64,000 bases of DNA. Source: Candidatus Magasanikbacteria bacterium RIFOXYC2_FULL_42_28. Its GTDB lineage: Bacteria > Patescibacteriota > Patescibacteriia > Magasanikbacterales > GWA2-37-8. The stretch spans positions 11,324 to 75,323 of the forward strand of contig MFQZ01000009.1 of the NCBI GenBank assembly GCA_001784435.1, in the 5' to 3' direction. Below, piece after piece: positions 5,190-62,440 of the stretch; position 1 is the stretch's first letter, and each line of letters opens with the position of its first letter. A program made the translations under genes and the position numbers. The notes beneath the pieces were generated by a model. That model made no database searches. It was not told the origin of the DNA and saw only the letters and a list, made by a program, of their open reading frames with translations.

Positions 5190-6440
5190 ATGCCATTTTT
5201 TAATTTACAACACACCGACAACCGCGCCCGCGCCGGCGTTCTCCATACTGCTCATGGCGATATTGCAACGCCTTGCTTTATGCCCGTCGGCACCCAAGCC
5301 ACTGTTAAAACTTTGGATTCTTTGGATTTGGAAAATTTAAACGCGCCAATAATTTTAGGAAATACTTACCACTTGCATTTGCGTCCGGGCGAAGATTTGA
5401 TTGACACGGCCGGTGGATTACATAAATTTATGAATTGGAAACGACCGATTTTGACTGACTCGGGTGGATTTCAAGTTTTTTCACTTGGTCTACAAAAGGA
5501 CACCAAATTGTCATTTCGAACCGAGCGTAGCGAGCGTGAGAAATCTCCATCCGGTAAACAATACAATAATGGAGATCCCTCGCTTGACGCTCGGGATGAC
5601 AGCAAGAACGGCAACGAAAAACTCGTAAAAATCGACGACGACGGCGTTACCTTCCGCTCGCACATTGACGGCTCTACCCATCGCTTTACCCCCGAATCCG
5701 CCATTGAAACTCAACACAAACTCGGCGCCGATATAATCATGGCTTTTGACGAATGCACACCTGATCGGGCTTCGCCTGGCTACGCCCGACAAGCCATGGA
5801 ACGAACACATCTTTGGGCCGAGCGCTGCATTACTGAACACAAAAAAGAAACTAACCGCCACGGCTACCCCCAATTTTTATTTGGCATAATCCAAGGCGCC
5901 AACCATCAGGACTTACGCGAAGAATCTGCGAAATTTATTTGCGCGCAAGATTTTGACGGCATCGCGGTCGGCGGTGAATCTATCGGCTACAATATGGAAG
6001 CCACTGACGAAATTTTAAAATGGGTGCACCCGTATTTACCAACTAATAAACCACATTACGCAATGGGGATGGGGCTTGATCCAGCTGATTTACTCGTCGC
6101 GGTTGAAAATGGCATTGATATGTTTGATTGCGTCGCGCCGACACGATTGGCTCGGCATGGAATGATATTTACAAAAACAAAAGATAAAAGTGGTAAACAT
6201 AGAATGAATATAAAAAACAGTAGTTTTGCTACTGATTTTAGTCCGATTGAGCTGGATTGCACTTGTCACACCTGCCAAAATTACACGCGCGCGTATATCC
6301 ATCATTTATTCGCGGCCGAGGAGATGACCGCCATGCGCCTGACATCCATTCACAATTTACATTTTATGGTAGATTTGATGAAACAAACACGCGAGGCAAT
6401 TTTAAATAATAATTTTGCGGAATTTAAGAAAAATTTCTAA
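5190..6440 (+). CDS. tgt: Queuine tRNA-ribosyltransferase with a ~30-aa repeat-derived insertion
   Basis: MPFFNLQHTDNRARAGVLHTAHGDIATPCFMPVGTQATVK, ILTDSGGFQVFSL, and a C-terminal zinc site CTCHTCQNYTRAYIHHLF. The start is chosen by N-terminal similarity to Tgt (M-x-F-x-L...GRAR). Confidence 0.85.
   Translation: MPFFNLQHTDNRARAGVLHTAHGDIATPCFMPVGTQATVKTLDSLDLENLNAPIILGNTYHLHLRPGEDLIDTAGGLHKFMNWKRPILTDSGGFQVFSLGLQKDTKLSFRTERSEREKSPSGKQYNNGDPSLDARDDSKNGNEKLVKIDDDGVTFRSHIDGSTHRFTPESAIETQHKLGADIIMAFDECTPDRASPGYARQAMERTHLWAERCITEHKKETNRHGYPQFLFGIIQGANHQDLREESAKFICAQDFDGIAVGGESIGYNMEATDEILKWVHPYLPTNKPHYAMGMGLDPADLLVAVENGIDMFDCVAPTRLARHGMIFTKTKDKSGKHRMNIKNSSFATDFSPIELDCTCHTCQNYTRAYIHHLFAAEEMTAMRLTSIHNLHFMVDLMKQTREAILNNNFAEFKKNF
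5508..5596 (+). mobile_element. RPE-like palindromic repeat (family 1), complete copy inserted in-frame in tgt
   Basis: The copy reads TTGTCATTTCGAACCGAGCGTAGCGAGCG...GAGAAATCTCCATCC...AATGGAGATCCCTCGCTTGACGCTCGGGATGACA. Both hairpin ends are present, and it translates as KLSFRTERSEREKSPSGKQYNNGDPSLDARDDS. Confidence 0.6.
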
Positions 6441-6466
6441 GTTTGATTACACAAGCGTAATCAAAC
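6441..6466. repeat. Perfect palindrome GTTTGATTAC-ACAAGC-GTAATCAAAC (family 3), immediately after the tgt stop
   Basis: 10-6-10 inverted repeat. An identical copy lies at 7180-7205 and variants at 7294-7320, 46963-46988 and 47037-47060. Confidence 0.6.
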
Positions 6467-6580
6467 TGGTGGTTTCGCTCGCCACACAACTTTATCCCAG
6501 AAAGACACTCTTGGCCGTTCGGCCTAGGTTACGCTTTCTGAAATAAAGTTGCGCGTCGAGCTCTATGGTGCATAAAACAA

Positions 6581-7048: not shown

Positions 7049-7055
7049 CGAGCGA

Positions 7056-7176
7056 AATGTCAAATTTCCAATTTCCAATGTCAAACCAAATCCAAATTTC
7101 AAATAACAAATACCGAATTTGACATTTTTACTTTGACATTGATTGGAAATTGGAAATTTGGATTTTGAAATTATCA
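7056..7176 (+). repeat. Long palindromic AATTTCCAATTTCCAATGTCAAA...TTTGACATTGGAAATTTGGATTTTGAAATT element (family 2)
   Basis: ~120 bp imperfect hairpin starting 8 nt after the rlmH stop. Four other copies occur at 12119, 19341, 43964 and 62441. Confidence 0.7.
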
Positions 7177-7179
7177 CAA

Positions 7180-7205
7180 GTTTGATTACACAAGCGTAAT
7201 CAAAC
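7180..7205. repeat. Family 3 palindrome GTTTGATTACACAAGCGTAATCAAAC
   Basis: Identical to 6441-6466. It brackets the rlmH and family 2 element segment. Confidence 0.6.
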
Positions 7206-7247
7206 TGTGGATAACTCTGGGTATAAGTCGCCTTTTCTGTGGATAAC
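7206..7247. promoter_or_regulatory. Two perfect DnaA boxes (TGTGGATAA, the reverse complement of TTATCCACA)
   Basis: Boxes at 7206-7214 and 7239-7247, 33 bp apart, followed by an AT-rich stretch at 7260-7380. Confidence 0.5.
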
Positions 7248-7395
7248 ACTTCGCTAATTTTAGCCAAAAAATATTTTCGGCAATAAAAAACTAAATTTGT
7301 ATACACAAGCGTATACAAATTTTTTGATATTTTAAACACTTTTAATCAATAATTTGGCTAATATATAACAAAAACTGCTCGCCTGCCCCACCCCC

Positions 7396-9204: not shown

Positions 9205-9304
9205 TTGTCATTCCGACAACGAAGGAGGAATCTCTATCCCGTTGGCTATTGCAGGCCAAATGGAGATCCCTCGTCGGATGCGAATCCTCACTCGGGATGA
9301 CAAA
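9205..9304 (+). mobile_element. RPE-like palindromic repeat (family 1), intergenic copy
   Basis: TTGTCATTCCGACAACGAAGGAGGAATCTCTATCCC...CAAATGGAGATCCCTCGTCGGATGCGAATCCTCACTCGGGATGACAA. Confidence 0.65.
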
Positions 9305-9348
9305 AAACGCTTGGTAACCAAAAAATAATTAGTTAATTTTCAACAACT

Positions 9349-10857
9349 ATGTTTTTCAAACTCCAAACCGCCGCCACCGTCGGCCTAGACGCTCGCCCCG
9401 TTGATGTAGAAGTAGACATCAGCAAAGGCCAAACGATGTTCAACATCGTCGGCCTCGCCGACACATCCATCAAAGAAGCGCGCGACCGCGTCCATTCGGC
9501 TTTGAAAAATTCCGGATTTAATTATCCGTTTAATTTTCGGATTTTAATAAATTTAGCGCCGGCGGATTTACCAAAAGAAGGCACGGGCTATGATTTGCCG
9601 ATAGCGGTTGGACTGATTGCCGTGTCGCAAAACATCGCTTTGAATACCGCGGACTCCTTGCTCGTGGGACAGTTGGCATTGGACGGTGCCGTGCGCCACA
9701 CCCCCGGGATTTTACCAATGGCGGTGTATGCCAAATCCGCCGGTTGTCGCGCCTTGTATGTGCCGGCAATGGACGCGCCCGAGGCGGCGCTCGTGCGGGG
9801 TCTGACAATTTATCCGGTCAAAAATTTAACGCAGATAATGGATCATTTAACCGGCAAAGATTTAATCGCGCCCTATGTGGCCGAAGCACCAGCGCCATTT
9901 ATCGCGGACGCGGGCGGGTTAGATATGAGCATGATTAAAGGCCAAGAATTCGCCAAGCGCGCGTTAGAAGTCGCGGCCGCCGGTGGCCATAATATTTTGT
10001 TGTCCGGCCCACCCGGTTCGGGAAAAACTTTGCTCGCCCGCACTTTGCCTTCTATCTTACCACCACTACTCACTGACGAAGCATTAGAAATTACCAAAAT
10101 TTATTCTATCGCTGGCCTGTTGCCATCTGGTTTAATTATGGAACGACCATTTCGCGGACCACACCACACCATTTCGCATGTCGCGCTTGTGGGCGGTGGA
10201 AGATGTCCGCGCCCGGGCGAAATTTCACTGTCACATCGCGGGGTTTTATTTTTAGATGAATTTCCGGAATTTCCGCGCACAGTTTTGGAGGCGCTCCGCC
10301 AACCTTTGGAAGATGGTCAAATTACCATTGCCCGCGCGCACGGCTCTTTAACTTTTCCCGCGCGTTTTATTTTAGTGGCCAGTCAAAATCCGTGCCCCTG
10401 TGGCTACAATTCGGACCCCGACAAGGCCTGCACTTGCTCATCAGCGCAAATTTCCAATTACACGCGCAAAATCAGTGGACCGATTTTGGATAGAATTGAT
10501 TTACAAGTAGAAGTCCCCCGCGTGCCGTTTGAAAAATTATCCGATTCGTCTTTGGCCGAATCATCGGCCGTGATTGCCGAGCGCGTGCGCGTGGCGCGTG
10601 ACCGCCAAACCGAACGACTGGCCAACACCAAAATTTTAACCAACAGCGAAATGGGTAATGCCGAAATTCGCGCTCATTGCCAATTAGACAAAGAATCCGT
10701 GGCGCTACTCCGTAGCGCGGTTGACCGCTTACATTTATCCGCGCGAGCGTATGGCCGAATTTTAAAATTGGCCAGGACGATTGCAGATTTGAATGCGCGT
10801 GAGAATATTGAGGTGGTGGATATTGCGGAGGCGCTACAGTATCGGGGGAAGGAGTAA
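9349..10857 (+). CDS. comM: Mg-chelatase-like AAA+ ATPase, YifB/ComM family
   Basis: 502 aa. It has an N-terminal Lon-like domain, Walker A GPPGSGKT, VLFLDEFPEF, and a C-terminal Mg-chelatase subunit ChlI domain. Confidence 0.85.
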   Translation: MFFKLQTAATVGLDARPVDVEVDISKGQTMFNIVGLADTSIKEARDRVHSALKNSGFNYPFNFRILINLAPADLPKEGTGYDLPIAVGLIAVSQNIALNTADSLLVGQLALDGAVRHTPGILPMAVYAKSAGCRALYVPAMDAPEAALVRGLTIYPVKNLTQIMDHLTGKDLIAPYVAEAPAPFIADAGGLDMSMIKGQEFAKRALEVAAAGGHNILLSGPPGSGKTLLARTLPSILPPLLTDEALEITKIYSIAGLLPSGLIMERPFRGPHHTISHVALVGGGRCPRPGEISLSHRGVLFLDEFPEFPRTVLEALRQPLEDGQITIARAHGSLTFPARFILVASQNPCPCGYNSDPDKACTCSSAQISNYTRKISGPILDRIDLQVEVPRVPFEKLSDSSLAESSAVIAERVRVARDRQTERLANTKILTNSEMGNAEIRAHCQLDKESVALLRSAVDRLHLSARAYGRILKLARTIADLNARENIEVVDIAEALQYRGKE

Positions 10858-10870
10858 ATAAAATTTCAAA

Positions 10871-10969
10871 TTGTCATTTCGACGACGAAGGAGAAATCTC
10901 TATCCCAATCGATTACCAATGGAGATCCCTCGTCCCGACTAAGTCGGGAGTCCTCGCTCGGGATGACAA
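10871..10969 (+). mobile_element. RPE-like palindromic repeat (family 1), the fullest copy
   Basis: TTGTCATTTCGACGACGAAGGAGAAATCTCTATCCCAATCGATTACCAATGGAGATCCCTCGTCCCGACTAAGTCGGGAGTCCTCGCTCGGGATGACAA, 13 nt after the comM stop. Confidence 0.7.
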
Positions 10970-10971
10970 AA

Positions 10972-10996
10972 ACCGCCAAACGACTGGCGGTTTTTT
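10972..10996 (+). terminator. Rho-independent terminator hairpin (CCGCCAAACGACTGGCGG + T6)
   Basis: A GC stem followed by TTTTTT. Confidence 0.5.
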
Positions 10997-11475: not shown

Positions 11476-12036
11476 TTATTTAGCCATCGCCAACTGCGTC
11501 GGCACGGGCACAATTTCCGGATAATAAACCTCTACAACCAAACGCTTCACCCCAAACTTCATGGCTTCAGCGCGGGTGGTATCTAACCAAATGTCAAAAC
11601 GTTCACAACCATATTTTTTATTCATCCGGTCAGAAACACGGAGTACCAAATTCTTGTCATATTCAGGGATCTTCACAGCGGTATTATGTTTCAAACAGTT
11701 ATTGGCAATCATGCCATCATATACCTGCTCGCCCCAAGCGGCCGTAAACGGATCATCGTCGGTTTGGCCCTTCGTGCTGGTATAAGCCGTAATTACCCCA
11801 TTTATTGTATAACTTGGCTTTTTATCAATATACGGGTAAAACATGCGGTCGGCCTGGGTTTGGCTTAAAACATGGTTTTTGTCGGTATTTTGGCTAATAT
11901 CAGCCAAAACAGTGGTCGGAATGACAATTTGCCACAAAATAGCGCCCAACATAGCCAAATTATAGGCAATATTGGTATACTTGTGGTTGTTTTTTGGCTT
12001 AAATAACATATTTTTAGAAATTAAAAAGGATACCAT
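11476..12036 (-). CDS. 3D-domain (RlpA/MltA-like double-psi beta-barrel) protein, membrane-anchored
   Basis: TSTKGQTDDDPFTAAWGE...LRVSDRMNKKYGCERFDIWLD shows the three conserved Asp of the 3D domain. The start is MVSFLISKN (12036), because the track's N-terminus runs into the family 2 repeat. Confidence 0.55.
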   Translation of the reverse strand: MVSFLISKNMLFKPKNNHKYTNIAYNLAMLGAILWQIVIPTTVLADISQNTDKNHVLSQTQADRMFYPYIDKKPSYTINGVITAYTSTKGQTDDDPFTAAWGEQVYDGMIANNCLKHNTAVKIPEYDKNLVLRVSDRMNKKYGCERFDIWLDTTRAEAMKFGVKRLVVEVYYPEIVPVPTQLAMAK

Positions 12037-12118
12037 ATACCGGTACCCCTGATTTGCTAACTGAATAGTATAGCACAAATTGGCATTTTTGTCAAGATGA
12101 GGTATAATATCCCTGAAA

Positions 12119-12228
12119 TGACAAATGTCAAATTTCCAATTTCCAATCAAATCCAAATTTCCAATATCAAATTAGACATTTTGATTTTGACATTGATTTG
12201 ACATTGGAAATTTGGATTTTGAAATTAT
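12119..12228 (+). repeat. Family 2 long palindromic element
   Basis: TGACAAATGTCAAATTTCCAATTTCCAATCAAATCCAAATTTCC...TTTGACATTGGAAATTTGGATTTTGAAATTATCAC. It lies in the divergent intergenic region and ends 6 nt before the pbp start. Confidence 0.7.
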
Positions 12229-15662: not shown

Positions 15663-15696
15663 AAAAATATCCCGACTTAGTCGGGATATTTTTTTG
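15663..15696 (+). terminator. Terminator hairpin AAAATATCCCGACTTAGTCGGGATATTTTTTT
   Basis: A perfect hairpin plus T-run. The loop CCCGACTTAGTCGGG is related to the internal hairpin of family 1 repeats. Confidence 0.6.
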
Positions 15697-15712: not shown

Positions 15713-16828
15713 CTACTGCCGTATCGGCATCACAATATACAAATAACTCTCATCTTTCTCCGGCGCGAGTACGCACGGGCTGTCGGCGTTAATCATCTTC
15801 ATGTACACCCGCTCACCGCGGATGCCATTGAGGCCATCCAACAAATAGCGATGGTTTAAGTTGATATTATTTTCTTCACCCACAATATCCGCGCTAATTT
15901 GGGAACTATATTCGCCGGTTTGGGTGGACGATGACGCGAGCGCGACGCTCTCGCCGGCGAATTTAAATACTACCGCATTAACACCGGTCGTAGAAAACAA
16001 ACTGGCGGCTTTTATTTCTTTGGTTAACTGCGCCAAAGACATACCAGCAGTAGTTTTAAAATCCTTGGGAATAATTTGAGTGTAATCCGGATATTTTCCG
16101 TCCACTAAACGCGACACTAATTGCGCGCCATCGTAATGAATCACTAATTGATTTTCATTAATTAAAATCCGCACGTTTTTTTCCGCTTCTGAGCTGGCCG
16201 CGGATAATAGATGATGGATTTCTTGCGCCGTGCGTCCAGGCACAATTGCTGAAAATGATTCTTCGCCTTGGGTTAATTTAATTTTTTTCTCGGCCAAGCG
16301 ATAACTGTCGGTGGAGGCCATGACAAGCCCTTTAAAACCTTCGGGGTTAAATGAGAAAAACACCCCGGATAATTCCGGACGAATATCGTTGCGCGCGAGC
16401 GCGGGGGTAACTTGCGCCAAACCATTTTTAAAATCTTCGGCTGACACGGTAAAACCATGGCCGTCTTTACTTTGAGGAACAACCGGGAAATCATCGGCCG
16501 GCGAACCCTTAATTTTGGTAGTGGCGCGATCACAGGTTACCACCAGTTCATTATTTACCAACTCCAAATCCACTTTTTCACCCGACAAGAAATTTACAAA
16601 ATCGGCCAATGTTCGTGCCGGCACGGTAAACTGACCTGGCTCATCCACCTTGGCTCGCAAATACGCCACCATTGCCAATTCTAAATTAGTGGCGACTATT
16701 TCCACGGTTTGGGTGTCGGCTTTAATTAAAACATTTCCCAAAATCGGCAGATTAATATTTTTTCCCGCTATCCCACCCACGAGAGATAACACGAGCGCTA
16801 AATTGTCCTTGGTGCATGATAATTTCAT
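15713..16828 (-). CDS. dnaN: DNA polymerase III beta sliding clamp
   Basis: 371 aa in three-domain beta-clamp layout. The N-terminus MKLSCTKDNLALVLSLVGGIAGKNINLPILGNVLIKA is typical. Confidence 0.9.
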   Translation of the reverse strand: MKLSCTKDNLALVLSLVGGIAGKNINLPILGNVLIKADTQTVEIVATNLELAMVAYLRAKVDEPGQFTVPARTLADFVNFLSGEKVDLELVNNELVVTCDRATTKIKGSPADDFPVVPQSKDGHGFTVSAEDFKNGLAQVTPALARNDIRPELSGVFFSFNPEGFKGLVMASTDSYRLAEKKIKLTQGEESFSAIVPGRTAQEIHHLLSAASSEAEKNVRILINENQLVIHYDGAQLVSRLVDGKYPDYTQIIPKDFKTTAGMSLAQLTKEIKAASLFSTTGVNAVVFKFAGESVALASSSTQTGEYSSQISADIVGEENNINLNHRYLLDGLNGIRGERVYMKMINADSPCVLAPEKDESYLYIVMPIRQ

Positions 16829-16832
16829 ATAA

Positions 16833-17088
16833 TTTATTTATTTTTTGGTAGTGTATTGGTTTATTATATCTAATTAATAGTAATAATAAGGGTGGGGATA
16901 GTGGGGATAATTTCGTTTTTTATTTTATCTTAGCCAATTTAGGAGTGGATAATTTTTTTTATTTTTTAATAACTATGATGTGAGTTTGGGGATAACTATT
17001 TGGGTTTGTTTATTTTAAAAATTTGGTGGGGATAGAGGTGTGAGGGTGGGGATAAACTATACGAGTTATCAACAAAGTTATACACAAT
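16833..17088. promoter_or_regulatory. oriC-like region: cluster of six or more DnaA boxes (TGGGGATAA / GTGGATAA) with an AT-rich unwinding stretch
   Basis: GGTGGGGATAGTGGGGATAA, AGTGGATAA, TTGGGGATAA and GGTGGGGATAG...GGTGGGGATAA lie between dnaN and dnaA. An AT-rich stretch is at 16905-16980. Confidence 0.6.
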
Positions 17089-18462
17089 CTAAACATTATT
17101 AATGTATAATTTTTGCTTAATTAAGTCAATCTCTTGCTTTAATTTAATATCATTTTCTACCTCTCTTTTGATTTTTTCATAAGCATGCATAGCGGTAGTG
17201 TGGTCGCGTCCGCCCAATTCGTCACCAATGGTGGGAAACGAGGTTTTTAATTCTTCGCGCAACATAAACATGACAATTTGGCGCGGGTTAGACAAGCGCT
17301 TTTCCCTATTTTTACTGGTAATTTCATCAAAATTCACATTATAAAACTCACAAACAGCATCAATTACTTGGCGAGGAGCCACCGCATGGCGCATGGAACC
17401 GACAGATAGGCCGGTTAAGAGTGTTTTGATTGATTCTTCGTTTGGTTCCAGGTGTTTTAGGTCGTGGTAAGCGATAATTTTGTTAAGCGCGCCTTCTAAT
17501 TCGCGGATATTGCTTTGGATGGACAGGGCGATTAATTTAATTAATTTTTCTTCTAAAGGAAAGTTTTTTTCAATGGTTTTTTTTCCTAAAATCGCTACGC
17601 GGGTTTCAAAATCAGGCGCCGCCACATCCACGATCATCCCCCACTCAAAACGTGATTTTAAACGGTCTTCCAAGGCCGGAATGGCTTTGGGTGGTCGGTC
17701 AGAAGTTAGGATTACTTGTTTGTTGGCTTGGTGCAGTTCATTAAAAGTGTGGAAAAATGATTCTTGGGTGCCGTCTTTGCCGGCGATAAACTGGATATCG
17801 TCAATTAACAGCGCGTCGGCGGTCCGATAATGATCTTGAAAATTTTTGGCCTCGCCCCCTTTCATTGACGAAATGTAATCATTGGTGAATTTTTCCGCGC
17901 TCACATAGACAATTTGATAATGGGGATTTTTTTTGATTATTTCATTGCCGATTGCTTGGAGCAGGTGGGTTTTGCCTAAACCAACGCCACCGTAGATGAA
18001 AAGCGGGTTGTAGGCCTCGCCCGGGCGATTAGAAACAGCTTGGGCGGCCGCAAACGCGAGCTCAGTGCCACGGCCGACCACAAAATTATCAAAACTATAT
18101 TTGGGATTAAGAGTAAAGCCACCGCTAGTTGGTGTGGTTGCCGGTTTGGTTACGGTCTCGGGTGGTATTTCGGTGTTGGGGGCGGGCGCGGCGCAGGCCT
18201 CGGCAATATTTTTGATGCTATCTATTTTGTATTCTAATTTTTTAATCGGTTTTTCTGTTACTCTTTCTAATGATTTGATAATATGATGATGATATTTTTT
18301 TTCAATCCAGGCCTGGCTGAATGTGCTCGGAACGCAAACCACTACCTGGCCTTCTTGCAGGGTGGTAATGCCGGTATTTTTAAACCAAGTGTTAAAATTG
18401 GCCTTGGAAACCATTAATTCCAGTTCGGCGAGGACGGCTTGCCAGATTTCAAGGTTATTCAT
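17089..18462 (-). CDS. dnaA: Chromosomal replication initiator DnaA
   Basis: GGVGLGKTHLLQAIGNE, the Walker B/sensor regions, and a C-terminal DNA-binding domain ending in the HTH. Confidence 0.95.
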   Translation of the reverse strand: MNNLEIWQAVLAELELMVSKANFNTWFKNTGITTLQEGQVVVCVPSTFSQAWIEKKYHHHIIKSLERVTEKPIKKLEYKIDSIKNIAEACAAPAPNTEIPPETVTKPATTPTSGGFTLNPKYSFDNFVVGRGTELAFAAAQAVSNRPGEAYNPLFIYGGVGLGKTHLLQAIGNEIIKKNPHYQIVYVSAEKFTNDYISSMKGGEAKNFQDHYRTADALLIDDIQFIAGKDGTQESFFHTFNELHQANKQVILTSDRPPKAIPALEDRLKSRFEWGMIVDVAAPDFETRVAILGKKTIEKNFPLEEKLIKLIALSIQSNIRELEGALNKIIAYHDLKHLEPNEESIKTLLTGLSVGSMRHAVAPRQVIDAVCEFYNVNFDEITSKNREKRLSNPRQIVMFMLREELKTSFPTIGDELGGRDHTTAMHAYEKIKREVENDIKLKQEIDLIKQKLYINNV

Positions 18463-18570
18463 AGAAAAATCATTTATAGTGTTCGTATTTTACCATGAAA
18501 ACAAAGTTATCCACAACCACGGATAATTCCGTTTTTTGGCTTAATTGGGGATAAGTTGGGGATAAGTGTT
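18463..18570. promoter_or_regulatory. Second DnaA-box cluster upstream of dnaA (TTATCCACA at 18507-18515, TGGGGATAA x2 at 18546-18565)
   Basis: A perfect consensus box plus two variants. This is the typical dnaA autoregulatory/origin arrangement. Confidence 0.55.
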
Positions 18571-18617
18571 ATAATATCAAAATATAAATATCAAAAATCA
18601 AAATTCGACCGTTGGGC

Positions 18618-18646
18618 TTGACAAAACCACAAAAATGTGATATAAT
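18618..18646 (+). promoter_or_regulatory. sigma70 promoter (TTGACA-17-TATAAT) for rpmH-rnpA-yidD
   Basis: TTGACA at 18618-18623 and TATAAT at 18641-18646. Confidence 0.6.
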
Positions 18647-18677
18647 AAAGGGGTGATTATTAAAAATATTCAAAAAT

Positions 18678-18854
18678 ATGGTGAAACGTACATATCAGCC
18701 AAAGAAACGCAAACGTTCTAAATCCCATGGTTTTAGAAAACGTATGAAAACCAGCGCCGGTCGGGCGGTTTTGGCTCGTCGTCGTGCCAAAGGACGCAAA
18801 AAATTAACTGTTTCCGATGAAAAGAAAGGCAAATTGTTGCGTAAAAGCCGTTAA
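18678..18854 (+). CDS. rpmH: 50S ribosomal protein L34 (with a C-terminal extension)
   Basis: [45 protein letters not shown]..., 58 aa. It is not in the track because it is under 60 aa. Confidence 0.8.
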
Positions 18855-18934
18855 AATTACTAAAATTAGCGAAAAATCCGGTTTTATGCCGGATTTTGTT
18901 TTTGGATGGTGTTTTGTGTGGTATAATATAATAT

Positions 18935-19339
18935 ATGTTAACCGATCAATATCGTTTAAAAAAAGTGCGGGATTTTAATATGCTCATGGAGCGTGGACGC
19001 TGGGCAGGCGGGGCGCTTTTTACAGTTAAATGGCTTAAATTAGCGGACCCTGGCATCAGATTGCCAAAGGCAATCGGTGCAGGGCCAGAATTGAAAAAAT
19101 TTATAGAGCAATTGCGTTTTGCTTTTGTGGTGGGTTTGAAGGTGAGTAAAAAGGCGGTTGAGCGCAATCGCTTGAAACGTCAGATGCGGGAGGTTGTTAG
19201 ATTGATGATTAAGGATGGGCGAGTTAAAAGCGGGTTTTATGTGATGGTGGTAGCGAAGGGCGAGGCGCTGGGGAAAGAGTATGGTAAAATTGAGAAAGAA
19301 ATTGAGGGTTTATTAAAGAGGATCGGCGTGGCAAGTTAA
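18935..19339 (+). CDS. rnpA: Ribonuclease P protein component
   Basis: 134 aa, basic, located just after rpmH. The RNR-like motif KKAVERNRLKRQMRE is present. Confidence 0.75.
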   Translation: MLTDQYRLKKVRDFNMLMERGRWAGGALFTVKWLKLADPGIRLPKAIGAGPELKKFIEQLRFAFVVGLKVSKKAVERNRLKRQMREVVRLMIKDGRVKSGFYVMVVAKGEALGKEYGKIEKEIEGLLKRIGVAS

Positions 19340-19340
19340 T

Positions 19341-19452
19341 AATGTCAAATTTCCAATTTCCAATGTCAAATCAAATCCAAAGCTCAAATTACGAATTTGA
19401 CATTTTGATTTTGACATTGATTTGACATTGGAAATTTGGATTTTGAAATTAA
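19341..19452 (+). repeat. Family 2 long palindromic element
   Basis: AATGTCAAATTTCCAATTTCCAATGTCAAATCAAATCCAAAGCTCAAATTACGAATTTGACATTTTGATTTTGACATTGATTTGACATTGGAAATTTGGATTTTGAAATT. It starts 2 nt after the rnpA stop and ends 1 nt before the yidD ATG. Confidence 0.7.
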
Positions 19453-22262: not shown

Positions 22263-22305
22263 TTTGTCATTTGTCATCCCGAGCGCAGCCGAGGGATCCC
22301 TTAAA
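22263..22305 (+). mobile_element. Family 1 repeat, solo half-copy (TTGTCATCCCGAGCGCAGCCGAGGGATCCCTTAAAC)
   Basis: It matches the left arm of the 22610-22712 copy. Confidence 0.5.
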
Positions 22306-22591
22306 CCCATTCTGCGCTTAAATCTTTCCAATGCGGATTGATTTGTTTAATTAAAAATTCTTTTTTGTCTCGACGCCAACTCTTTAACTGTTTCTCTCGG
22401 GTTATCGCCGTGTTGATATCTTGATAGTGTTCATAAAAAACTAGTCTGCCAACATCATATTTTTTTGTAAATCCTTCAACTAATTTTTGTTTATGTTCAG
22501 AAAGTCGTTTTTCTAAATTATTTGTAACGCCGGTGTATAGCGTGCCACTATCACTTGCCAATATGTAAACATAATAATTGTGCTGTTTCAT
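22301..22591 (-). CDS. GIY-YIG nuclease-domain protein (UPF0213-like)
   Basis: YYVYILASDSGTLYTGVTNNLEKRLSEHK is the GIY-YIG core. The start is taken at MKQHNYYVYIL. Confidence 0.65.
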   Translation of the reverse strand: MKQHNYYVYILASDSGTLYTGVTNNLEKRLSEHKQKLVEGFTKKYDVGRLVFYEHYQDINTAITREKQLKSWRRDKKEFLIKQINPHWKDLSAEWV

Positions 22592-22609: not shown

Positions 22610-22712
22610 GTCGTTTGTCATTCCGAGCGTAGCCGAGGAATCCCTTAAACTTATTATTGTACAAATACTATCTGTAAGGGATCCCTCCGCTCGCTAAGGC
22701 TCGGTCGGGATG
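22610..22712 (+). mobile_element. Family 1 repeat (variant subtype with both arms)
   Basis: TTGTCATTCCGAGCGTAGCCGAGGAATCCCTTAAAC...TAAGGGATCCCTCCGCTCGCTAAGGCTCGGTCGGGATGACAAG. Confidence 0.6.
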
Positions 22713-22720
22713 ACAAGCGA

Positions 22721-23554
22721 TTAACCCCGTATTTTTTTCAAAATTGCCAGATCTTTTTCAACTTTATCATGATCAGTTTCTAAATAGAAATTAATATTTT
22801 GTAATCGTTTGTCAGTTAATAATGCTTGAAATCCCTTCAATCCAATTAGGCCGTCACCGATATGTTCGTGGCGATCTTTTTTCGCGCCGAGTTCTACTTT
22901 AGAATCATTGCAGTGCGCCATTTTTAATTTATCAAGACCGATTATTTTATCAAATTTTTTGAGAGTGGTGTCAACTGTTTCGGGTGTGCGGCAATCATAA
23001 CCGGAGGCAAACGCGTGTTCGGTATCGTAACACACACCGATGTCATATTTTTTTAATTTAGGGTGATAAATAATTTCCGCGATTTCTTCAAAAGTGTCGC
23101 CGATAATTTCGCCGGCGCCGGCGGCAATTTCAATTAAAAATTGCGTTTCGCCTTTGTATCCTTTTAACATTTCCGCCAAGTCCTGTGCCACTTGCGCCAA
23201 TCCCAAATCGTGTCCCAAATCTTTGTAACTGCCGAGGTGCGCCATTAAATATTTGGCGCCCAGAAGCGACGCCCGTTCCAATTCTTCGCGCACAATTTTA
23301 ATAGAGCCAAATCTAATGCGATTATTAGCAGAGGCAAAATTGATAATATACGGCGCGTGCACCGCCCATTCTTTTTGATTAAATGCTTTACACCGATCTT
23401 GAAATTCTTTACCAATACTCTCAGTTATTGGTGGGGTAAATCCGCCCTGAGGCGAGCGTGTAAACATTTGAAAAACTTCGCAACCTAAATTAGCCGCGTT
23501 TTGCGGGGCGTTGGTAATCGCGCCGGCAATGGAAACGTGTGCGCCAAAAAGCAT
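22721..23554 (-). CDS. nfo: Endonuclease IV (AP endonuclease family 2)
   Basis: 277 aa xylose-isomerase-like TIM barrel. AVHAPYIINFAS, metal-binding His/Asp/Glu are spaced as in Nfo, and HCNDSK is present. Confidence 0.8.
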   Translation of the reverse strand: MLFGAHVSIAGAITNAPQNAANLGCEVFQMFTRSPQGGFTPPITESIGKEFQDRCKAFNQKEWAVHAPYIINFASANNRIRFGSIKIVREELERASLLGAKYLMAHLGSYKDLGHDLGLAQVAQDLAEMLKGYKGETQFLIEIAAGAGEIIGDTFEEIAEIIYHPKLKKYDIGVCYDTEHAFASGYDCRTPETVDTTLKKFDKIIGLDKLKMAHCNDSKVELGAKKDRHEHIGDGLIGLKGFQALLTDKRLQNINFYLETDHDKVEKDLAILKKIRG

Positions 23555-30773: not shown

Positions 30774-30835
30774 CAGCCAACCTTTCACGGGGCGAAGATT
30801 TGAGGACCTTCGCCCCTAGTCCTAAATTTAAAATC

Positions 30836-30866
30836 ATCCCGACTAAGTTGGGATGATTTTTTTGTT
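30836..30866. terminator. Hairpin AAAATCATCCCGACTAAGTTGGGATGATTTTTTTG
   Basis: The same CCCGACTAAGTxGGG core as the 15663 terminator and the family 1 internal hairpin. Confidence 0.5.
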
Positions 30867-36187: not shown

Positions 36188-38905
36188 ATGAAGAAACTTG
36201 TTATTATAGATGGGAACGCAATAATACATAGGGCCTATCACGCCATTCCGCCCATGAACACCAAAAACGGGATGATGGTCAATGCGGTGTATGGGTTTAC
36301 TTCCATGTTGTTGCGCGTTTGGAAAGATTTAAAGCCGACACATATTGCCGTCACTTTTGATATGCGCGGTCCGACTTTTCGGCATGAAAAATTTAAGGAA
36401 TACAAAGCCACGCGCGTGAAAGCGGATCAGGAATTGTATGATCAGATTCCTTTGGTGCACAATGTTGTTCGTGCTTTTAATATTCCGATTTATGAAAAGG
36501 CCGGTTATGAGGCCGACGATGTGATTGGCACGGTCGCTCGCATGGTAGAAAATAAAAAAGAGGTTGAGACGTATATTGTGACGGGTGATAAAGATACTCT
36601 ACAGTTGATTGAGCCAGGGGTGAAAGTTTTTACCTTGCGTAAAGGGATGAGTGATACGGTAATTTATGATGCCGAGGGTGTAAAAGAAAAATTTGGATTT
36701 TTACCGGATAAAATGGTGGATTACAAAGCGCTGGCCGGTGATGCGTCGGATAATATTCCGGGGGTGCCGGGGGTGGGAGAGAAGACGGCGACAGATTTGA
36801 TTCAGAAGTTTGGGGGGATTGATGAGATTTATGATAATATCAAAAATCAAAAATCAAATATCAAAGATATTAAGGCGGGTGTCTTGAAAAAATTGATTGA
36901 CGGCGAAGAGTCGGCGCGGATGAGTTTTGAACTTGCGACGATTGACCGCAATGTTCCGGGGGTGGATTTTAAGTTGGAAGATTGCGTGGCAAAAGAATTT
37001 GACCGCGAGAAAGTGGTTAAGATTTTTCAGGAGTTGGAGTTTATGTCGTTGTTGAAGCGTTTACCCGGCGAAGCATTAGCGAAGACGGGGTTGCCGGGGG
37101 CGAGTGGGGATGGAGATCCCTCGCTTGACACTCGGGATGACAAACAAAAAAAAGTCCGAGCGAAATTTAAAGTTGATGAAATAAAGACAAAAGATGAAGT
37201 TGAGAAATTAGTTGAGCAGATTCGTAAAACAAAATCATTTGCCTGCCGTGAGGCCACGGCTGGACGTGAAGTTTATAATTCAGAATTGTTTGGTGTGGCG
37301 GTTATTGTTTCTGGCGCCGGATATTTTATTAGTGAAAAATTATTAAAAGAATTTTTGCCGGTATTTGAATTTTCGGATTGTGAATTCGTTGGTCATGATT
37401 TAAAACAGTTAATCAAAATTTTAAAACTGCAGGGCGTGGAAATAAAAAATAAATTGTTTGACACGATGATCGCGTCGTATCTGCTGGAACCGGGCAGTCG
37501 GGCGCATGACAGCGCCAGTATTGTTTTGAAAGTGTTAGGCCAAGAATTACCAGCCGGTGCCGGGCAGAATAGTTTGTTTGGGGCGGATATGCTTGCGGTA
37601 ACACAAGAATTATACCAACTATCTTTGGCGGCCGAAAAATTAAAAAAAGAATTAGTCGCGATTAGCGATTTTGGTTTAATGGAAAAAATAGAGATGCCAC
37701 TTTTGCCGGTCCTCGCGCAAATGGAATTAAACGGTATTGCCGTGGATTTAAAATTACTACAAAAATTATCCGAACAAGTGACGGCGGAAATTAAAACCGT
37801 GAGCGCGACTATTTTTAAATTGAGTGGAACGGAATTTAATATCTCGTCGCCGACACAATTGCGCGAAGTGCTGTTTGAAAAAATGGAAATTCCAGTGGAA
37901 GGAATTAAAAAAGGCAAAACCGGTTTGTCCACTTCTGCCGAACAGTTAGAAAAATTGCGCGGTCAACACCTAATCATTGAACATATTGAAAATTATCGCG
38001 AATTGGAAAAATTGCGCAATACCTATATTGATGTTTTGCCGACTTTGATAAATAAAAAGACCGGTCGGATTCACACCACTTTTAATCAGGCGGTCGCGGC
38101 GACTGGGCGCCTGTCATCGTCTGATCCAAATTTACAAAATATTCCCATTCGCACGGAGTTGGGGCGCAAGATCCGCAAGGCCTTTGTGGCCGAAGATGGC
38201 AATGTGCTTATTTCCGCCGATTATTCGCAAATTGAATTGCGCGTGGTGGCATCACTCGCCGAGGATAAAAAAATGATGGAAATTTTTGAGGCTGGTTTGG
38301 ATATTCACGCGGCGACAGCAGCGGCGATAAATCATGTGGATTTAAAAGATGTTACCAAGGACATGCGTCGCGCGGCCAAGGAAGTAAATTTTGGCGTGTT
38401 GTATGGCATGGGCGCATATGGCTTGGCTTGGCGGGCCGATATTCCCCAGTGGCAAGCCAAAGATTTTATTGATAAATATTTTAGTGAATTTAGTGGTGTG
38501 AAAAAATATTTAGACGCGACTTTGGAATTTACCAAAAAAGAGGGATACTGCGAAACACTGTTTGGTCGGCGCCGGTATATTCCGGAATTAAACGCCAGCA
38601 ACCACCAATTGCGGATGGCCGGCGAACGGATGGCGATTAATCATCCGATTCAGGGGACGGCCGCGGATTTGATTAAGATGGCGATGATAGAAATATCAAA
38701 ATGTAAATATCAAAATGAAAAATTATTGAGCGACGATGTGCGAATGATATTACAAGTGCACGACGAATTGGTGTTTGAAGTAAAAAAAGAATTGGCTGAT
38801 GAAGTCGGTAAAAAGGTAAAAGAAATTATGGAGGGTGTGGCCAAATTGCGCGTGCCGATTGTGGTGGAGGTGAATGTTTCTAAAAGTTGGGGGGAGATGA
38901 AATAA
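36188..38905 (+). CDS. polA: DNA polymerase I (5'-3' exonuclease, 3'-5' exo-like and polymerase domains)
   Basis: 905 aa. The polymerase motifs are RRAAKEVNFGVLYGM (motif B) and QVHDELVFEV (motif C). The N-terminal FEN-like domain is present. Confidence 0.9.
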   Translation: MKKLVIIDGNAIIHRAYHAIPPMNTKNGMMVNAVYGFTSMLLRVWKDLKPTHIAVTFDMRGPTFRHEKFKEYKATRVKADQELYDQIPLVHNVVRAFNIPIYEKAGYEADDVIGTVARMVENKKEVETYIVTGDKDTLQLIEPGVKVFTLRKGMSDTVIYDAEGVKEKFGFLPDKMVDYKALAGDASDNIPGVPGVGEKTATDLIQKFGGIDEIYDNIKNQKSNIKDIKAGVLKKLIDGEESARMSFELATIDRNVPGVDFKLEDCVAKEFDREKVVKIFQELEFMSLLKRLPGEALAKTGLPGASGDGDPSLDTRDDKQKKVRAKFKVDEIKTKDEVEKLVEQIRKTKSFACREATAGREVYNSELFGVAVIVSGAGYFISEKLLKEFLPVFEFSDCEFVGHDLKQLIKILKLQGVEIKNKLFDTMIASYLLEPGSRAHDSASIVLKVLGQELPAGAGQNSLFGADMLAVTQELYQLSLAAEKLKKELVAISDFGLMEKIEMPLLPVLAQMELNGIAVDLKLLQKLSEQVTAEIKTVSATIFKLSGTEFNISSPTQLREVLFEKMEIPVEGIKKGKTGLSTSAEQLEKLRGQHLIIEHIENYRELEKLRNTYIDVLPTLINKKTGRIHTTFNQAVAATGRLSSSDPNLQNIPIRTELGRKIRKAFVAEDGNVLISADYSQIELRVVASLAEDKKMMEIFEAGLDIHAATAAAINHVDLKDVTKDMRRAAKEVNFGVLYGMGAYGLAWRADIPQWQAKDFIDKYFSEFSGVKKYLDATLEFTKKEGYCETLFGRRRYIPELNASNHQLRMAGERMAINHPIQGTAADLIKMAMIEISKCKYQNEKLLSDDVRMILQVHDELVFEVKKELADEVGKKVKEIMEGVAKLRVPIVVEVNVSKSWGEMK
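37109..37144 (+). mobile_element. Family 1 repeat half-copy embedded in-frame in polA
   Basis: ATGGAGATCCCTCGCTTGACACTCGGGATGACAA translates as GDGDPSLDTRDDK, in the linker between the 5'-exo and 3'-exo-like domains. Confidence 0.55.
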
Positions 38906-38908
38906 ATT

Positions 38909-39046
38909 ATGATTATCTATCTATCCGGCCCCGACACCTTTCGGAGTCGGCAATATTTAAAAGAACAAGTGGAGAAGCTTAAAATTGCCCACTACTACGA
39001 TGGATACGAGAAAATTTTAGAAGATATTTTGGCTAATATATAATAA
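38909..39046 (+). pseudogene. Truncated duplicate of the holA 5' end (45-aa remnant)
   Basis: MIIYLSGPDTFRSRQYLKEQVEKLKIA matches MIIFIHGPDTFRSRQYLKEQVEKFKIA of holA at 43001. The two are ~90% identical at the DNA level over 83 bp, and the copy starts 3 nt after the polA stop. Confidence 0.6.
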
Positions 39047-42956: not shown

Positions 42957-43000
42957 AGTGTTTTGCATAACATTGGGGAACATATTATAATGAGCTTACT

Positions 43001-43963
43001 ATGATTATATTTATACACGGCCCCGACACCTTTCGGAGCCGGCAATATTTAAAAGAACAAGTGGAGAAATTTAAAATTGCCCGCGATCCACAGGGGTATA
43101 ATGTTGTGTTTGCGGACGCGGTGAGCGACGAGCCGGGGAAAATTTTAGGGGAGATTTCCAGCGCGCCGTTTTTGGCAGATAAGAGAATGATTGTTGTAGA
43201 AAATATTTTGGCATGCAAGGATAAGGATTTTATGGCTACGCTCATTGAAATGGTAAAAAATAATAAAGTGCCGGAAAGTAATGTTGTTTTGTTTTGGCAA
43301 GGCGAAGATAAATCAAAAATAAAAGAAGTGGATGAATTGGATAAATTATTGAAAAAAGAAAAATACGCGAAAGAATTTGATATGTTAACGGGCGCGCAAT
43401 TGTCCGTTTGGATAAAACAGGAATTTGTTAAATCAAAAGCGACTGTCAGTATGCCGGCGTTAAATTTTTTGGCGCAGAACGCGGGTGGTGATATGTGGCG
43501 ATTGTCGTCTTTAATCGCGCAATTGTCGGCCTATGCCACTGGGCGCGAGGTCGGCGTGGAAGGTGTAAAATTATTTTTGGATGAAAAGGTTGATGATAAT
43601 GTTTTTAATATGGTGGAAGCGGTCGTGTCGGGCAATCGTAAGCAGGCGTATAAATTATTAACCGAGCAAAGGCGGTTAGGCGAAGAGGACGGAAAATTAT
43701 TTGGTTTGATATTGTGGCAATTTCGGATTTTGGTGAATTTAAGGTCGTTGTTTGAAACTGAAGATAATTTAACGGCTGATCAAATGGCTAAACAACTTGG
43801 TTTGCATCCGTTTGTCGTGAAAAAGAATTTGGCACTGGTAAAACGAATGAGCTCGGCACGCTTAAAAGAAATTTACGAGATGCTTTTGGATATTGATAAA
43901 AAAATAAAAACCGGGCGGGGGGACTTGGGGTTGTTGGTTGATGTGCTGGTGGGACGCTTATGA
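43001..43963 (+). CDS. holA: DNA polymerase III delta subunit
   Basis: 320 aa with the HolA N-terminal fold IFIHGPDTF...FLADKRMIVVEN and a C-terminal helical domain. Confidence 0.75.
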   Translation: MIIFIHGPDTFRSRQYLKEQVEKFKIARDPQGYNVVFADAVSDEPGKILGEISSAPFLADKRMIVVENILACKDKDFMATLIEMVKNNKVPESNVVLFWQGEDKSKIKEVDELDKLLKKEKYAKEFDMLTGAQLSVWIKQEFVKSKATVSMPALNFLAQNAGGDMWRLSSLIAQLSAYATGREVGVEGVKLFLDEKVDDNVFNMVEAVVSGNRKQAYKLLTEQRRLGEEDGKLFGLILWQFRILVNLRSLFETEDNLTADQMAKQLGLHPFVVKKNLALVKRMSSARLKEIYEMLLDIDKKIKTGRGDLGLLVDVLVGRL

Positions 43964-44066
43964 ATGTCAAATTTCCAATTTCCAATGTCAAATCAAAGCC
44001 AAAATGACAAATTTGACATTTTTATTTTGACATTGATTGGAAATTGGATATTTGGATTTTGAAATT
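43964..44066 (+). repeat. Family 2 long palindromic element
   Basis: It starts immediately after the holA TGA as AATGTCAAATTTCCAATTTCCAATGTCAAATCAAAGCC...TTTGACATTGATTGGAAATTGGATATTTGGATTTTGAAATT. Confidence 0.7.
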
Positions 44067-44101
44067 AGTAAAGTCAGACACATACAGAAGCTTGAGTTTA
44101 A

Positions 44102-46948: not shown

Positions 46949-46962
46949 GTTGAAAAGTGGAT

Positions 46963-47060
46963 GTTTGTATACGCTAGCGTAATCAAACTTTAAAAATGCT
47001 CAATTTTGGGCGTTTTTTTGATATATTTAAAATTTGATTACGCTAGTGTAATCAAACGCG
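46963..47060. repeat. Two family 3 palindromes (GTTTGTATACGCTAGCGTAATCAAAC at 46963-46988; TTTGATTACGCTAGTGTAATCAAA at 47037-47060)
   Basis: The same arms as the 6441/7180 copies with a different 6-7 nt centre. Confidence 0.5.
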
Positions 47061-61255: not shown

Positions 61256-62407
61256 ATGTCTTTTTCCATCGGGATTGTCGGATTGCCAAATGTCGGTAAA
61301 TCAACTTTATTTAATGCTTTGACGCGCAGTAAGCAAGCGGACGCTGCCAATTATCCTTTTTGCACTATTGATCCGAATGTGGGCGTAGTCGCGGTTCCGG
61401 ATGAGCGGTTAGCAAAGTTATCCGAAATTTCTAAATCAAAAAAAATTATCCCAACGGTGATTGAATTTGTGGATATTGCCGGTTTGGTAAAAGGCGCGAG
61501 CGAAGGCGAGGGTTTGGGTAATAAATTTTTATCACATATTCGCGAAGTGGACGCCATCGCGCAAGTAGTGCGCGCGTTTTCGGATAGTAATGTTATTCAT
61601 GTGAATAATAAAGTGGACCCAAAGAATGATAGCGAGGTGATTAATTTAGAATTGGCGTTGGCGGATTTACAAGTTGTTACCAAAAGATTAAGCACTGCCA
61701 AAAAAGATACCAAAGGTTCGGTGGCAAAAGACAAAGAAAAAGAAATTGAATTATTGACAAAAATTAATGCCCAGCTCGAGGCCGGCAAACCGGCGCGCGC
61801 GTTAGAATACAATGATGATGAAAAAATAATTTTAAAAAAATTACAGCTGTTGACAGCCAAACCGATGTTGTATGTGGTGAATACTGACGAAGGGGGCGGA
61901 ATTTCACCAATTGTTACTCCGACGACGAAGGAGGAATCTCTATCCCAATTGATTGCCAATGGAGATCCCTCGTCCCGACTAAGTCGGGAGTCCTCGCTCG
62001 GGATGACAACGCAAATAAACGTTTGTGCCAAGTTGGAAGCGGAATTGGCAGATTTGAGTGTGGAGGAAGCCAAAGAATATTTAAAAACTGCTGGCATTAC
62101 CGAAACCGGTTTGGATAAATTAGTTGTCGCCAGTTACAAATTATTGGATTTAATAACTTTTCTAACTTCGGGCGAACCGGAAACGCGCGCTTGGACGGTA
62201 AAAAATGGCGCGAGGGCCCCGGAAGCGGCCGGAGTCATTCACACGGATTTTATCAAAGGTTTTATTAAAGCCGATGTTTGTGACTGGCAAGATTTTGTTA
62301 CGCACCACGGTTGGTCAAAAATAAAAGAAACCGGAAAACTCCGATTAGAGGGAAAAGATTATGTCGTGAGAGATGGAGATGTTGTGTATTTCCATGTTAG
62401 TACCTGA
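61256..62407 (+). CDS. ychF: Ribosome-binding ATPase YchF (Obg family) with a repeat-derived insertion
   Basis: IGIVGLPNVGKSTLFNALT, NYPFCTIDPN and the C-terminal TGS domain (VVRDGDVVYFH). It is 383 aa, against ~363 aa typical for YchF. Confidence 0.85.
   Translation: MSFSIGIVGLPNVGKSTLFNALTRSKQADAANYPFCTIDPNVGVVAVPDERLAKLSEISKSKKIIPTVIEFVDIAGLVKGASEGEGLGNKFLSHIREVDAIAQVVRAFSDSNVIHVNNKVDPKNDSEVINLELALADLQVVTKRLSTAKKDTKGSVAKDKEKEIELLTKINAQLEAGKPARALEYNDDEKIILKKLQLLTAKPMLYVVNTDEGGGISPIVTPTTKEESLSQLIANGDPSSRLSRESSLGMTTQINVCAKLEAELADLSVEEAKEYLKTAGITETGLDKLVVASYKLLDLITFLTSGEPETRAWTVKNGARAPEAAGVIHTDFIKGFIKADVCDWQDFVTHHGWSKIKETGKLRLEGKDYVVRDGDVVYFHVST
61911..62009 (+). mobile_element. Family 1 repeat, full copy inserted in-frame in ychF
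   Basis: TTGTTACTCCGACGACGAAGGAGGAATCTCTATCCCAATTGATTGCCAATGGAGATCCCTCGTCCCGACTAAGTCGGGAGTCCTCGCTCGGGATGACAA is 96% identical to the 10871 copy and translates as IVTPTTKEESLSQLIANGDPSSRLSRESSLGMT. Confidence 0.65.
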
Positions 62408-62440
62408 TTATTCTTATGGAGTTAGAATAAGTATTAATAA

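Follow-up and report, generated by a model that had tools for sequence, protein, structure and literature searches.

A family of short inverted repeats, about 100 nt long in the full form, is dispersed through a 64,000-nt stretch of the genome of Candidatus Magasanikbacteria bacterium RIFOXYC2_FULL_42_28 (contig MFQZ01000009.1, positions 11,324 to 75,323; the whole stretch is called the window below), and among its copies lies a gene for a 96-aa GIY-YIG protein. The family is confirmed as real: it is dispersed, hairpin-forming and non-coding. From its motifs, it is classed here as a variant of the superfamily that comprises the SRM motifs and the CGTC/TGTC-tagged repetitive extragenic palindromes (REPs), accompanied by a cognate ssn-like gene, and as neither a Rickettsia palindromic element (RPE) nor a classical MITE (miniature inverted-repeat transposable element). 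The explanation we consider quite probable is that the elements are doublets of the SRM/REP type, that they are gene-less derivatives of a motif-ssn-motif unit, and that they are likely targets of the SsnA-type nuclease encoded in the window. The repeat type is already known and widespread; what is most notable is the in-frame colonisation of tgt, ychF and polA in a host of the Candidate Phyla Radiation (CPR).

Copies and hairpin anatomy of the repeat family

A profile of the five long copies was run with nhmmer over the window, and it recovered five full copies of about 100 nt and two single halves. All five full copies, which are inverted doublets, score best on the plus strand. Two of them are intergenic: one at 9205-9303 (E = 7.5e-24), 25 nt past the lspA stop and 46 nt ahead of the comM start (neighbours identified by Pfam Peptidase_A8 and Mg_chelatase), and one at 10871-10969 (E = 8.7e-24), 14 nt past the comM stop. 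The doublet at 22615-22716 (E = 3.2e-17) lies between the GIY-YIG gene and the gene for endonuclease IV (22721-23554, minus strand), while those at 5508-5601 (E = 8.8e-17) and 61911-62009 (E = 7e-23) lie in frame inside tgt and ychF. As for the single motifs, the one at 37110-37143 (minus strand, E = 1.6e-5) is in frame in polA, and the one at 22271-22305 (plus strand, inverted orientation, TTGTCATCCCGAGCGCAGCCGAGGGATCCCT; E = 1.1e-3) forms the downstream bracket of the GIY-YIG gene and is a direct repeat (D19) with 22610-22655. The terminal 11-mer TCGGGATGACA, with at most one mismatch allowed, occurs 10 times in the window, against 0.71 expected from shuffles. A near-match to the terminus at 11916-11926 was set aside as chance; it has one mismatch, sits inside an open reading frame (ORF) and is without a hairpin partner.

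An earlier sequence-only reading of the window had listed at least seven dispersed copies, and this count is borne out. Its positions stand, with corrected ends for two copies: the one at 5508 stops at 5601 rather than 5596, and the one placed at 22610 spans 22615-22716. It had not noticed that the copies at 5508, 61911 and 37110 are inside long conserved ORFs, nor that those at 22271 and 22615 bracket the GIY-YIG gene. Its figure of about 96% identity between the 10871 and 61911 copies comes down to 94% when counted, with 6 of 99 positions different.

Each full element consists of two related hairpin motifs of about 25-45 nt, which are inverted and separated by a spacer of 19-40 nt. The tag TTGTCAT stands at the outer end on each strand of every full element and faces outward. 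Among the 12 halves in the window, 11 motif units have a perfect 5-bp outer stem and one is degenerate. The tagged halves run TTGTCATTCCGA..GGAATCTC and TTGTCATCCCGAGCG..CGAGGGATCTCC; the outer stem is ATTYC...GRAAT in the left motif and, on the opposite strand, ATCCC...GGGAT in the right one. Read on the tagged strand, a single motif shows an A-T, a T-A and three C-G pairs, two apparent G.A mismatches, a short inner stem and a G-N-A-like loop. The short class has 5 bp, G.A/A.G, 2 bp and a 3-nt loop; in the remaining copies the loops span 12-30 nt and contain nested hairpins. Tandem G.A mismatches together with a G-N-A loop stabilise DNA hairpins, and do so on one strand only.

Does each half fold on itself, or do the two halves pair with each other? 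Within the window the outer stem covaries as ATTCC/GGAAT, ATTTC/GAAAT and ATCCC/GGGAT. These differences are compensatory within a half and not between halves, which points to each half folding on itself. Covariation was then measured in 18 left-hand motifs from other phyla, chosen by the tag and by the spacing of the two GA dinucleotides, with complementarity not required. The paired share of cells in this set is 90.5%, compared with 83.4% for shuffles, and none of 500 shuffles reaches that level; five of the seven pairs vary on both sides, and when the register is slid only 8-52% pair. In a wider set, 41-42 of 43 sequences retain G.A and A.G at the two mismatch positions, and most loops are G-N-A. 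All copies of the window can form long hairpins, whichever strand is folded, at z-scores between -1.6 and -5.7, in agreement with the hairpin potential ascribed to them earlier.

A nested hairpin, CCCGACTWAGTYGGG, occurs at four loci in the window where none is expected; two are inside elements and two stand alone. In the 10871 copy the nested hairpin CCCGACTAAGTCGGG is in the right-hand motif. A palindrome at 15667-15696 (ATATCCCGACTTAGTCGGGATAT and a T-run, no strand assigned), whose stem is the nested-hairpin stem of the 10871 and 61911 copies, lies between convergent genes and is likely a bidirectional terminator. Another at 30833-30864 (ATCATCCCGACTAAGTTGGGATGAT and a T-run, again with no strand) resembles both element termini (TCATCCCGA / TYGGGATGA) joined without the interior. 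The suggestion made earlier, that bare hairpins at 15663 and 30836 are related to the family and act as terminators, agrees with the shared stem and with the T-runs that follow (15671, 30838). Directly after the 10871 copy, at 10973-10996 on the plus strand, a separate hairpin that looks like an intrinsic terminator (CCGCCA-loop-TGGCGG, then T6) can be read by eye, so the element itself is not the terminator. A terminator consensus scan of the window omitted the hairpins visible at 10973 and 15667.

The genes dnaN (15713-16828) and dnaA (17089-18462) are both on the minus strand and the GC skew switches sign nearby; from this region (15713-18462 and about 18500-19450), the window probably contains the replication origin. 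The full copies share one orientation on either side of it.

The GIY-YIG gene, copies inside conserved genes, and distribution

In Neisseria, the 94-aa single-domain GIY-YIG protein SsnA binds the dRS3-containing NTS repeat (CGTCATTCCCGCGMAVGCGGGAATCYRG); it acts on single-stranded DNA only, cuts just upstream of NTS on one strand and ignores RNA (Chenal et al. 2025, PMC11893778). Related motifs flank ssnA homologues across phyla, at 71% of the homologues; in Neisseria the effect is on transformation, and mobility was not demonstrated (PMC11893778). Is there such an enzyme in the window? The gene at 22304-22591 on the minus strand encodes a 96-aa protein with GIY-YIG as its single domain (Pfam PF01541, E = 3.2e-17), which by analogy is a putative cognate single-strand DNA nuclease of the SsnA type. 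The Ssn family is delimited as GIY-YIG-only proteins of about 95 aa that match N. meningitidis SsnA (CAX49033.1; cd10448-like) at a BLAST E < 1e-10 with at least 75% coverage. The window protein was compared with the sole matching locus of the N. gonorrhoeae chromosome, to which it is 50-52% identical over 88% coverage (E = 1e-18 to 1e-22), and the catalytic-type residues Y7, Y9, Y19, G21, R29, H33, E66 and N85 are invariant in the alignment. Around the gonococcal gene there are nine canonical NTS repeats, arranged in outward-tagged inverted pairs 105-183 nt long. An NCBIfam scan of the 96-aa protein gave only a sub-threshold match to a group-I-intron endonuclease.

The ssn-like gene has motifs on both its 5' and 3' sides, both in the window and at five loci of relatives (L097 and L121-L124). 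In the window a full doublet ends 24 nt upstream of the ATG, and at the stop codon an inverse single motif begins. In the relatives a motif ends 6-40 nt before the ssn ATG and an inverse motif begins at the stop or soon after it; the close relative L121 has the arrangement [doublet]-20 nt-[motif-ssn-motif]. At L124, a Gracilibacteria contig with an alternative genetic code, two ssn-like genes stand in the ATP-synthase operon (9950-10330 and 17480-17860), each flanked by an inverted motif pair of its own that matches perfectly; one of the two pairs is NTS-like (ATTCCTGCGAAGGCAGGAAT). These paired units suggest that nuclease and site co-evolve. Because the ssn gene in the relatives lies exactly between inverted motifs, the 100-nt elements are read as gene-less derivatives. 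On another CPR contig (L157, 4040-4765), composite inverted pairs of two subtypes bracket about 600 nt of a membrane-protein gene, with no ssn between them.

Three copies are in frame inside conserved ORFs, as the ORF translations show, and all three hosts, tgt, ychF and polA, are essential genes. In tgt (queuine tRNA-ribosyltransferase, ORF ending at 6440) the insert at 5508-5601 is read as LSFRTERSEREKSPSGKQYNNGDPSLDARDD. Compared with solved TGT structures it is a clean insertion of 43-44 aa, in which window residues 100-143 match one residue of Z. mobilis TGT, and the Pfam TGT match is split in two. In polA the insert is read as GDGDPSLDTRDDK and lies in the linker that joins the 5'-nuclease domain to the 3'-5' exonuclease-like domain, where the Pfam domains stop at residue 274 and resume at 331. 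Of 33 positions compared, 32 agree between the polA motif and the tgt copy's right half, and a search of PDB with the polA linker fragment gave no match. Peptides that would span the insert junctions include ...GGGISPIVTPTTK and NGDPSSR.

In ychF the insert is read as VTPTTKEESLSQLIANGDPSSRLSRESSLGMT and falls between the G4 motif and the strand preceding G5. The closest YchF homologues (86-87% identical, 359-361 aa) are without the insert, whereas five homologues at 73-78% identity have related VIP..EES..DPS..LGMT inserts in the same loop. At the DNA level the left junction TC(A/G)CCAA|TTGT is common to the window and one relative of 76% identity, and the interior there belongs to a different subfamily. 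An AlphaFold2 model of YchF, built on a 19-sequence alignment, reached a pLDDT of 42 and the insert was not placeable in it. In the ychF copy the left tag (61911-61922) is mutated to TTGTTACTCC from TTGTCATTYC and one pair of the outer stem is broken; the copy may be disabled, if the tag is required for nuclease recognition. In one 86%-identical homologue without the insert, loop residues of about 213-228 read PLDSRLHGNDSEAG, like the reverse-strand peptide of an NTS-type motif, so this loop may have been hit repeatedly.

The elements have three to four of six reading frames open. The left half is read in different frames by tgt and ychF, so the conservation is at the DNA level and not that of a peptide module. 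Such repeats also explain common spurious or odd peptide stretches (VIP..EES.., ..DPS..LGMT) in the annotation of metagenome proteins.

How widely is the family distributed? The closest named homologues of the YchF and GIY-YIG proteins of the window are in Candidatus Magasanikbacteria and other Patescibacteria bins. In a scan of one genome per species with the right-hand motif as query, the exact motif was found at at least 115 loci in many phyla, often in the same doublet form. The hosts listed are Bacteroidota, Gammaproteobacteria including Legionella, Acidobacteriota, Chloroflexota, Verrucomicrobiota, Kiritimatiellia, Gemmatimonadota, Clostridia, Bdellovibrionota and CPR, so that the family is not peculiar to this organism; nor are its copies restricted to this window without hairpin potential, which the sequence-only reading had named as a possible refutation. 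About 4 of 80 CPR comM loci (419 kb) carry such motifs, and the system is thus patchy within CPR. In the metagenome scan the comM relatives are at most 66-70% identical, too far for orthologous empty sites of the intergenic copies. Literature searches returned nothing on a palindromic element together with the Candidate Phyla Radiation, and a search by the sequence GTCATTCCGA returned unrelated primer matches only.

There is a further observation on comM, a natural-transformation helicase gene. Two doublets bracket it in the window (9205-10969), and at a 66%-identical CPR comM locus (L127, 2298-2440) two doublets belonging to other motif subtypes, one being NTS-like, stand immediately upstream. 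The association may matter, as NTS-gene-NTS lowers transformation in Neisseria.

Proposed mechanism and competing explanations

What would produce gene-less doublets around a nuclease gene and inside essential genes? By analogy with the Neisseria and Wolbachia enzymes, the Ssn-like protein would bind the folded motif in single-stranded DNA and cut only the tagged strand, a few nucleotides 5' of the tag. Given that the tags of a doublet face outward, the cuts would fall at both element boundaries, on opposite strands. The 100-nt elements would be gene-less derivatives of a motif-ssn-motif unit, and would have spread within the genome or been homogenised by gene conversion; nick-induced copying and gene conversion between copies are the candidates for making copies. 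Intragenic copies would sit in tolerant loops of tgt, ychF and polA and be translated as an extra peptide, persisting because they keep the phase and bring no stop codon into the frame that is read. What the analysis itself shows is the family with its anatomy and covarying hairpins, its association with the gene, the in-frame copies, one empty site and the spread over phyla; cleavage of these motifs by the 96-aa protein, and the way in which copies move, we infer.

Several points weigh against this explanation. The published SRM search pattern (HGTCWYN(0-2)YYVSBRHN(0-5)WNVSBRGN(0-2)RNCYNB), applied by a script that recovers 9 of 9 gonococcal NTS, has no exact match on either strand of the window, and 4 of the 12 halves match with one substitution; as the pattern fails on these halves, the motif is a variant outside the published definition. 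The similarity figures for the 96-aa protein come from the gonococcal ssnA-locus protein, which stands in for Neisseria SsnA. The unit in the window is incomplete, as it lacks the motif immediately 5' of the ssn gene. Among the matches listed, an ssn gene is within 8 kb at only 1 of the 115 motif-selected loci, which gives no support from linkage and fits dispersed repeats. Nearest-neighbour folding shows no strand preference in the copies. No target-site duplication, which had been proposed as a check, was found at any of the five full copies. Empty sites in relatives had been proposed as another: the ychF homologues at 86-87% do lack the insert, but their loop sequence differs and is unrelated, and the site is not a clean excision footprint. 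Rejoining of DNA is not known for GIY-YIG nucleases, and a transposition chemistry is therefore not established.

Would the repeats rather be fixed and domesticated? They might be Ssn landing pads that restrict or shape incoming single-strand recombination, as proposed for the Neisseria NTS, with near-identity kept by gene conversion. The Neisseria work indeed describes an effect on transformation without demonstrating mobility (PMC11893778), comM is bracketed by two doublets and has doublets just upstream at the 66%-identical locus, and type IV pilus genes are nearby; moreover, the ychF site common to the 76%-identical relative, filled by another subfamily, fits conversion at an old site. We nevertheless regard this explanation as rather unlikely. 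A regulatory or restricting role is hard to see for copies inside essential genes, the gene-plus-motif unit occurs in unrelated contexts in relatives (twice in one ATP-synthase operon, for example), the motif is present at only about 4 of 80 CPR comM loci, and 87%-identical ychF genes differ in the presence or absence of the insert. One may also suppose that the elements act mainly as RNA, that is, as terminators, mRNA-stabilising stem-loops or a small structured RNA. The strong hairpin potential, the positions of the 9205 and 10871 copies 25 and 14 nt past stop codons, the terminator-like short hairpins with T-runs at 15671 and 30838, and the sense orientation of most examined copies, in the window and in relatives, to their flanking genes would all suit such a role. 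Yet termination inside an essential ORF would be lethal, and three copies lie in such ORFs; the elements are not followed by a T-run, the 10871 copy has a terminator of its own behind it, and folding is equally good on both strands. The tandem G.A mismatches and G-N-A loop in each half are stabilisers of DNA hairpins. An Rfam covariance scan gave only four tRNAs at gathering score in the window and nothing at E <= 1 over the copies, so that a known non-coding RNA or riboswitch, another possible refutation named in the sequence-only reading, was not found. The characterised partner enzyme also ignores RNA (PMC11893778). On all these counts a mainly RNA-level function is very unlikely.

The sequence-only reading had itself leaned to a non-autonomous MITE with no transposase. 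In the classical form this would be an insertion sequence with an internal deletion, mobilised in trans by a DDE or tyrosine transposase whose gene lies elsewhere in the genome. The elements are small, dispersed and without coding capacity, their termini TTGTCAT...ATGACAA are inverted repeats, and a transposase might be present elsewhere in the genome, beyond the 64-kb window. Against this, target-site duplications are lacking at the five full copies, the GIY-YIG gene is the only gene found between such termini, both in relatives of the window and at other CPR loci, and the 2013 survey of the repeat class found no transposase with it (PMC3733652). A classical MITE is, in our judgement, most improbable. 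The term holds for a gene-less derivative in the loose sense; the reading missed the partner GIY-YIG gene, and no relationship to a DDE transposase was seen.

A stronger form of the SRM/REP-Ssn explanation is that motif-ssn-motif units and gene-less doublets make up an active mobile system of CPR, in which a single-strand GIY-YIG nuclease takes the role of a transposase. This is possible and at present doubtful. If true, the system would be an analogue of REPIN/RAYT that works by another chemistry, such as nick-induced copy repair at replication forks. It could enter essential genes in frame, with preferred sites of which the G4-G5 loop of ychF is one, and would explain mechanistically how RPE-like insertions in proteins arise across bacteria.

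Other repeats of the window and comparison with known systems

The window holds further repeats. A second palindromic family, A+T-rich and about 111 nt long (AATGTCAAATTTCCAATTTCC...GGAAATTGGAAATTTGACATT), is present at 7049-7173, 12117-12227, 19341-19451, 43957-44067 and 62439-62549, with copies up to 93% complementary; one copy adjoins the region upstream of dnaA and another directly follows ychF. It differs from the repeats studied here in not having a hairpin in each half. A family of 30-nt near-perfect palindromes (AAGTTTGATTACACAAGCGTAATCAAACTG) is found at 6439-6468, 7178-7207, 7293-7322, 46961-46990 and 47030-47059; two copies are identical, the first begins at the tgt stop codon, and the family could be an operator or another mini-repeat. 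The segments 38908-38990 and 43000-43082 (83 nt, 90% identical) show that the 5' end of the gene at 43001-43963 is duplicated just after the polA stop; with no long ORF behind it, the duplicate is possibly a truncated gene copy. Finally, an ORF of 2167 aa (54603-61106) has internal repeats of about 129 nt and weak matches to the Pfam LVIVD repeat, and its product is probably a large surface protein.

Among known systems, the NTS/SRM-SsnA pair has the same oriented GTCAT tag followed by an ATTCC...GGAAT-type hairpin in an inverted repeat of 20-50 nt, motifs on both sides of a gene for a GIY-YIG protein of about 95 aa that is about 50% identical, and outward-tagged inverted pairs, which at the Neisseria locus are 105-183 nt long. 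The differences are that the window motif has tandem G.A mismatches where the other has an unbroken G+C stem, and that its loops are often longer, that the host belongs to Patescibacteria, a group unmentioned in the text of PMC11893778, and that three of the seven window copies are intragenic, against 2% reported in N. meningitidis. The CGTC/TGTC-tagged REPs, for which CCTC is a further tag, are mostly inverted dimers with spacers of 20-100 bp, are sometimes intragenic, have no associated transposase, and are the same as the dRS3 of Neisseria and the RPE-4/RPE-6 of R. conorii (Di Nocera et al. 2013, PMC3733652). The window family shares their TGTC tag and a stem opening with A-T and T-A (all 11 intact halves are TGTC-AT...AT), the predominance of inverted dimers with such spacers (five dimers beside two singletons), the pairing of two stem variants in heterodimers, intragenic dimers that are in frame and encode 20-30 aa, and the absence of a transposase association. 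It departs from them in its stem, which is 5 bp, G.A and 2 bp where stems of 8-9 bp with loops of 4-5 nt were described, and in its host, as the five phyla in PMC3733652 exclude CPR.

With the RPEs the family has in common the in-frame insertion into conserved genes, here tgt, ychF and polA. The Rickettsia palindromic repeats, described by Ogata and colleagues in 2000 and 2002, reportedly occur in a small genome in frame within conserved protein genes and are said to be translated as an extra surface peptide. The sequence families and the host are different, and in the window a candidate partner nuclease can be identified. Eight element-encoded peptides had no NCBIfam match at E <= 10, and so no RPE domain model. 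The parallel with these elements that was drawn earlier is apt, both for the in-frame copies and since RPE-4 and RPE-6 belong to the same tagged hairpin type (PMC3733652).

REPIN/RAYT (Bertels & Rainey 2011, PMC3116915) is similar in having an inverted doublet of a short hairpin repeat as the mobile-looking unit, a repeat-flanked single-copy gene as the presumed driver, and a biology of single-stranded DNA hairpins. Its tag is GTAG where that of the window is TGTC, its enzyme is a Y1 (HUH) transposase and not a GIY-YIG nuclease, and strand-transfer chemistry is not known for a GIY-YIG protein. The motif of the window escapes the published pattern and yet spans many phyla, so pattern-based surveys may under-count the system. 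As a new host group, CPR/Patescibacteria here provides, within one 64-kb window, a putative nuclease gene, its brackets, gene-less doublets and intragenic copies. The family thus links the Rickettsia-type in-frame insertions, the transposase-less CGTC-tagged REPs and the 2025 work on the Ssn nucleases.

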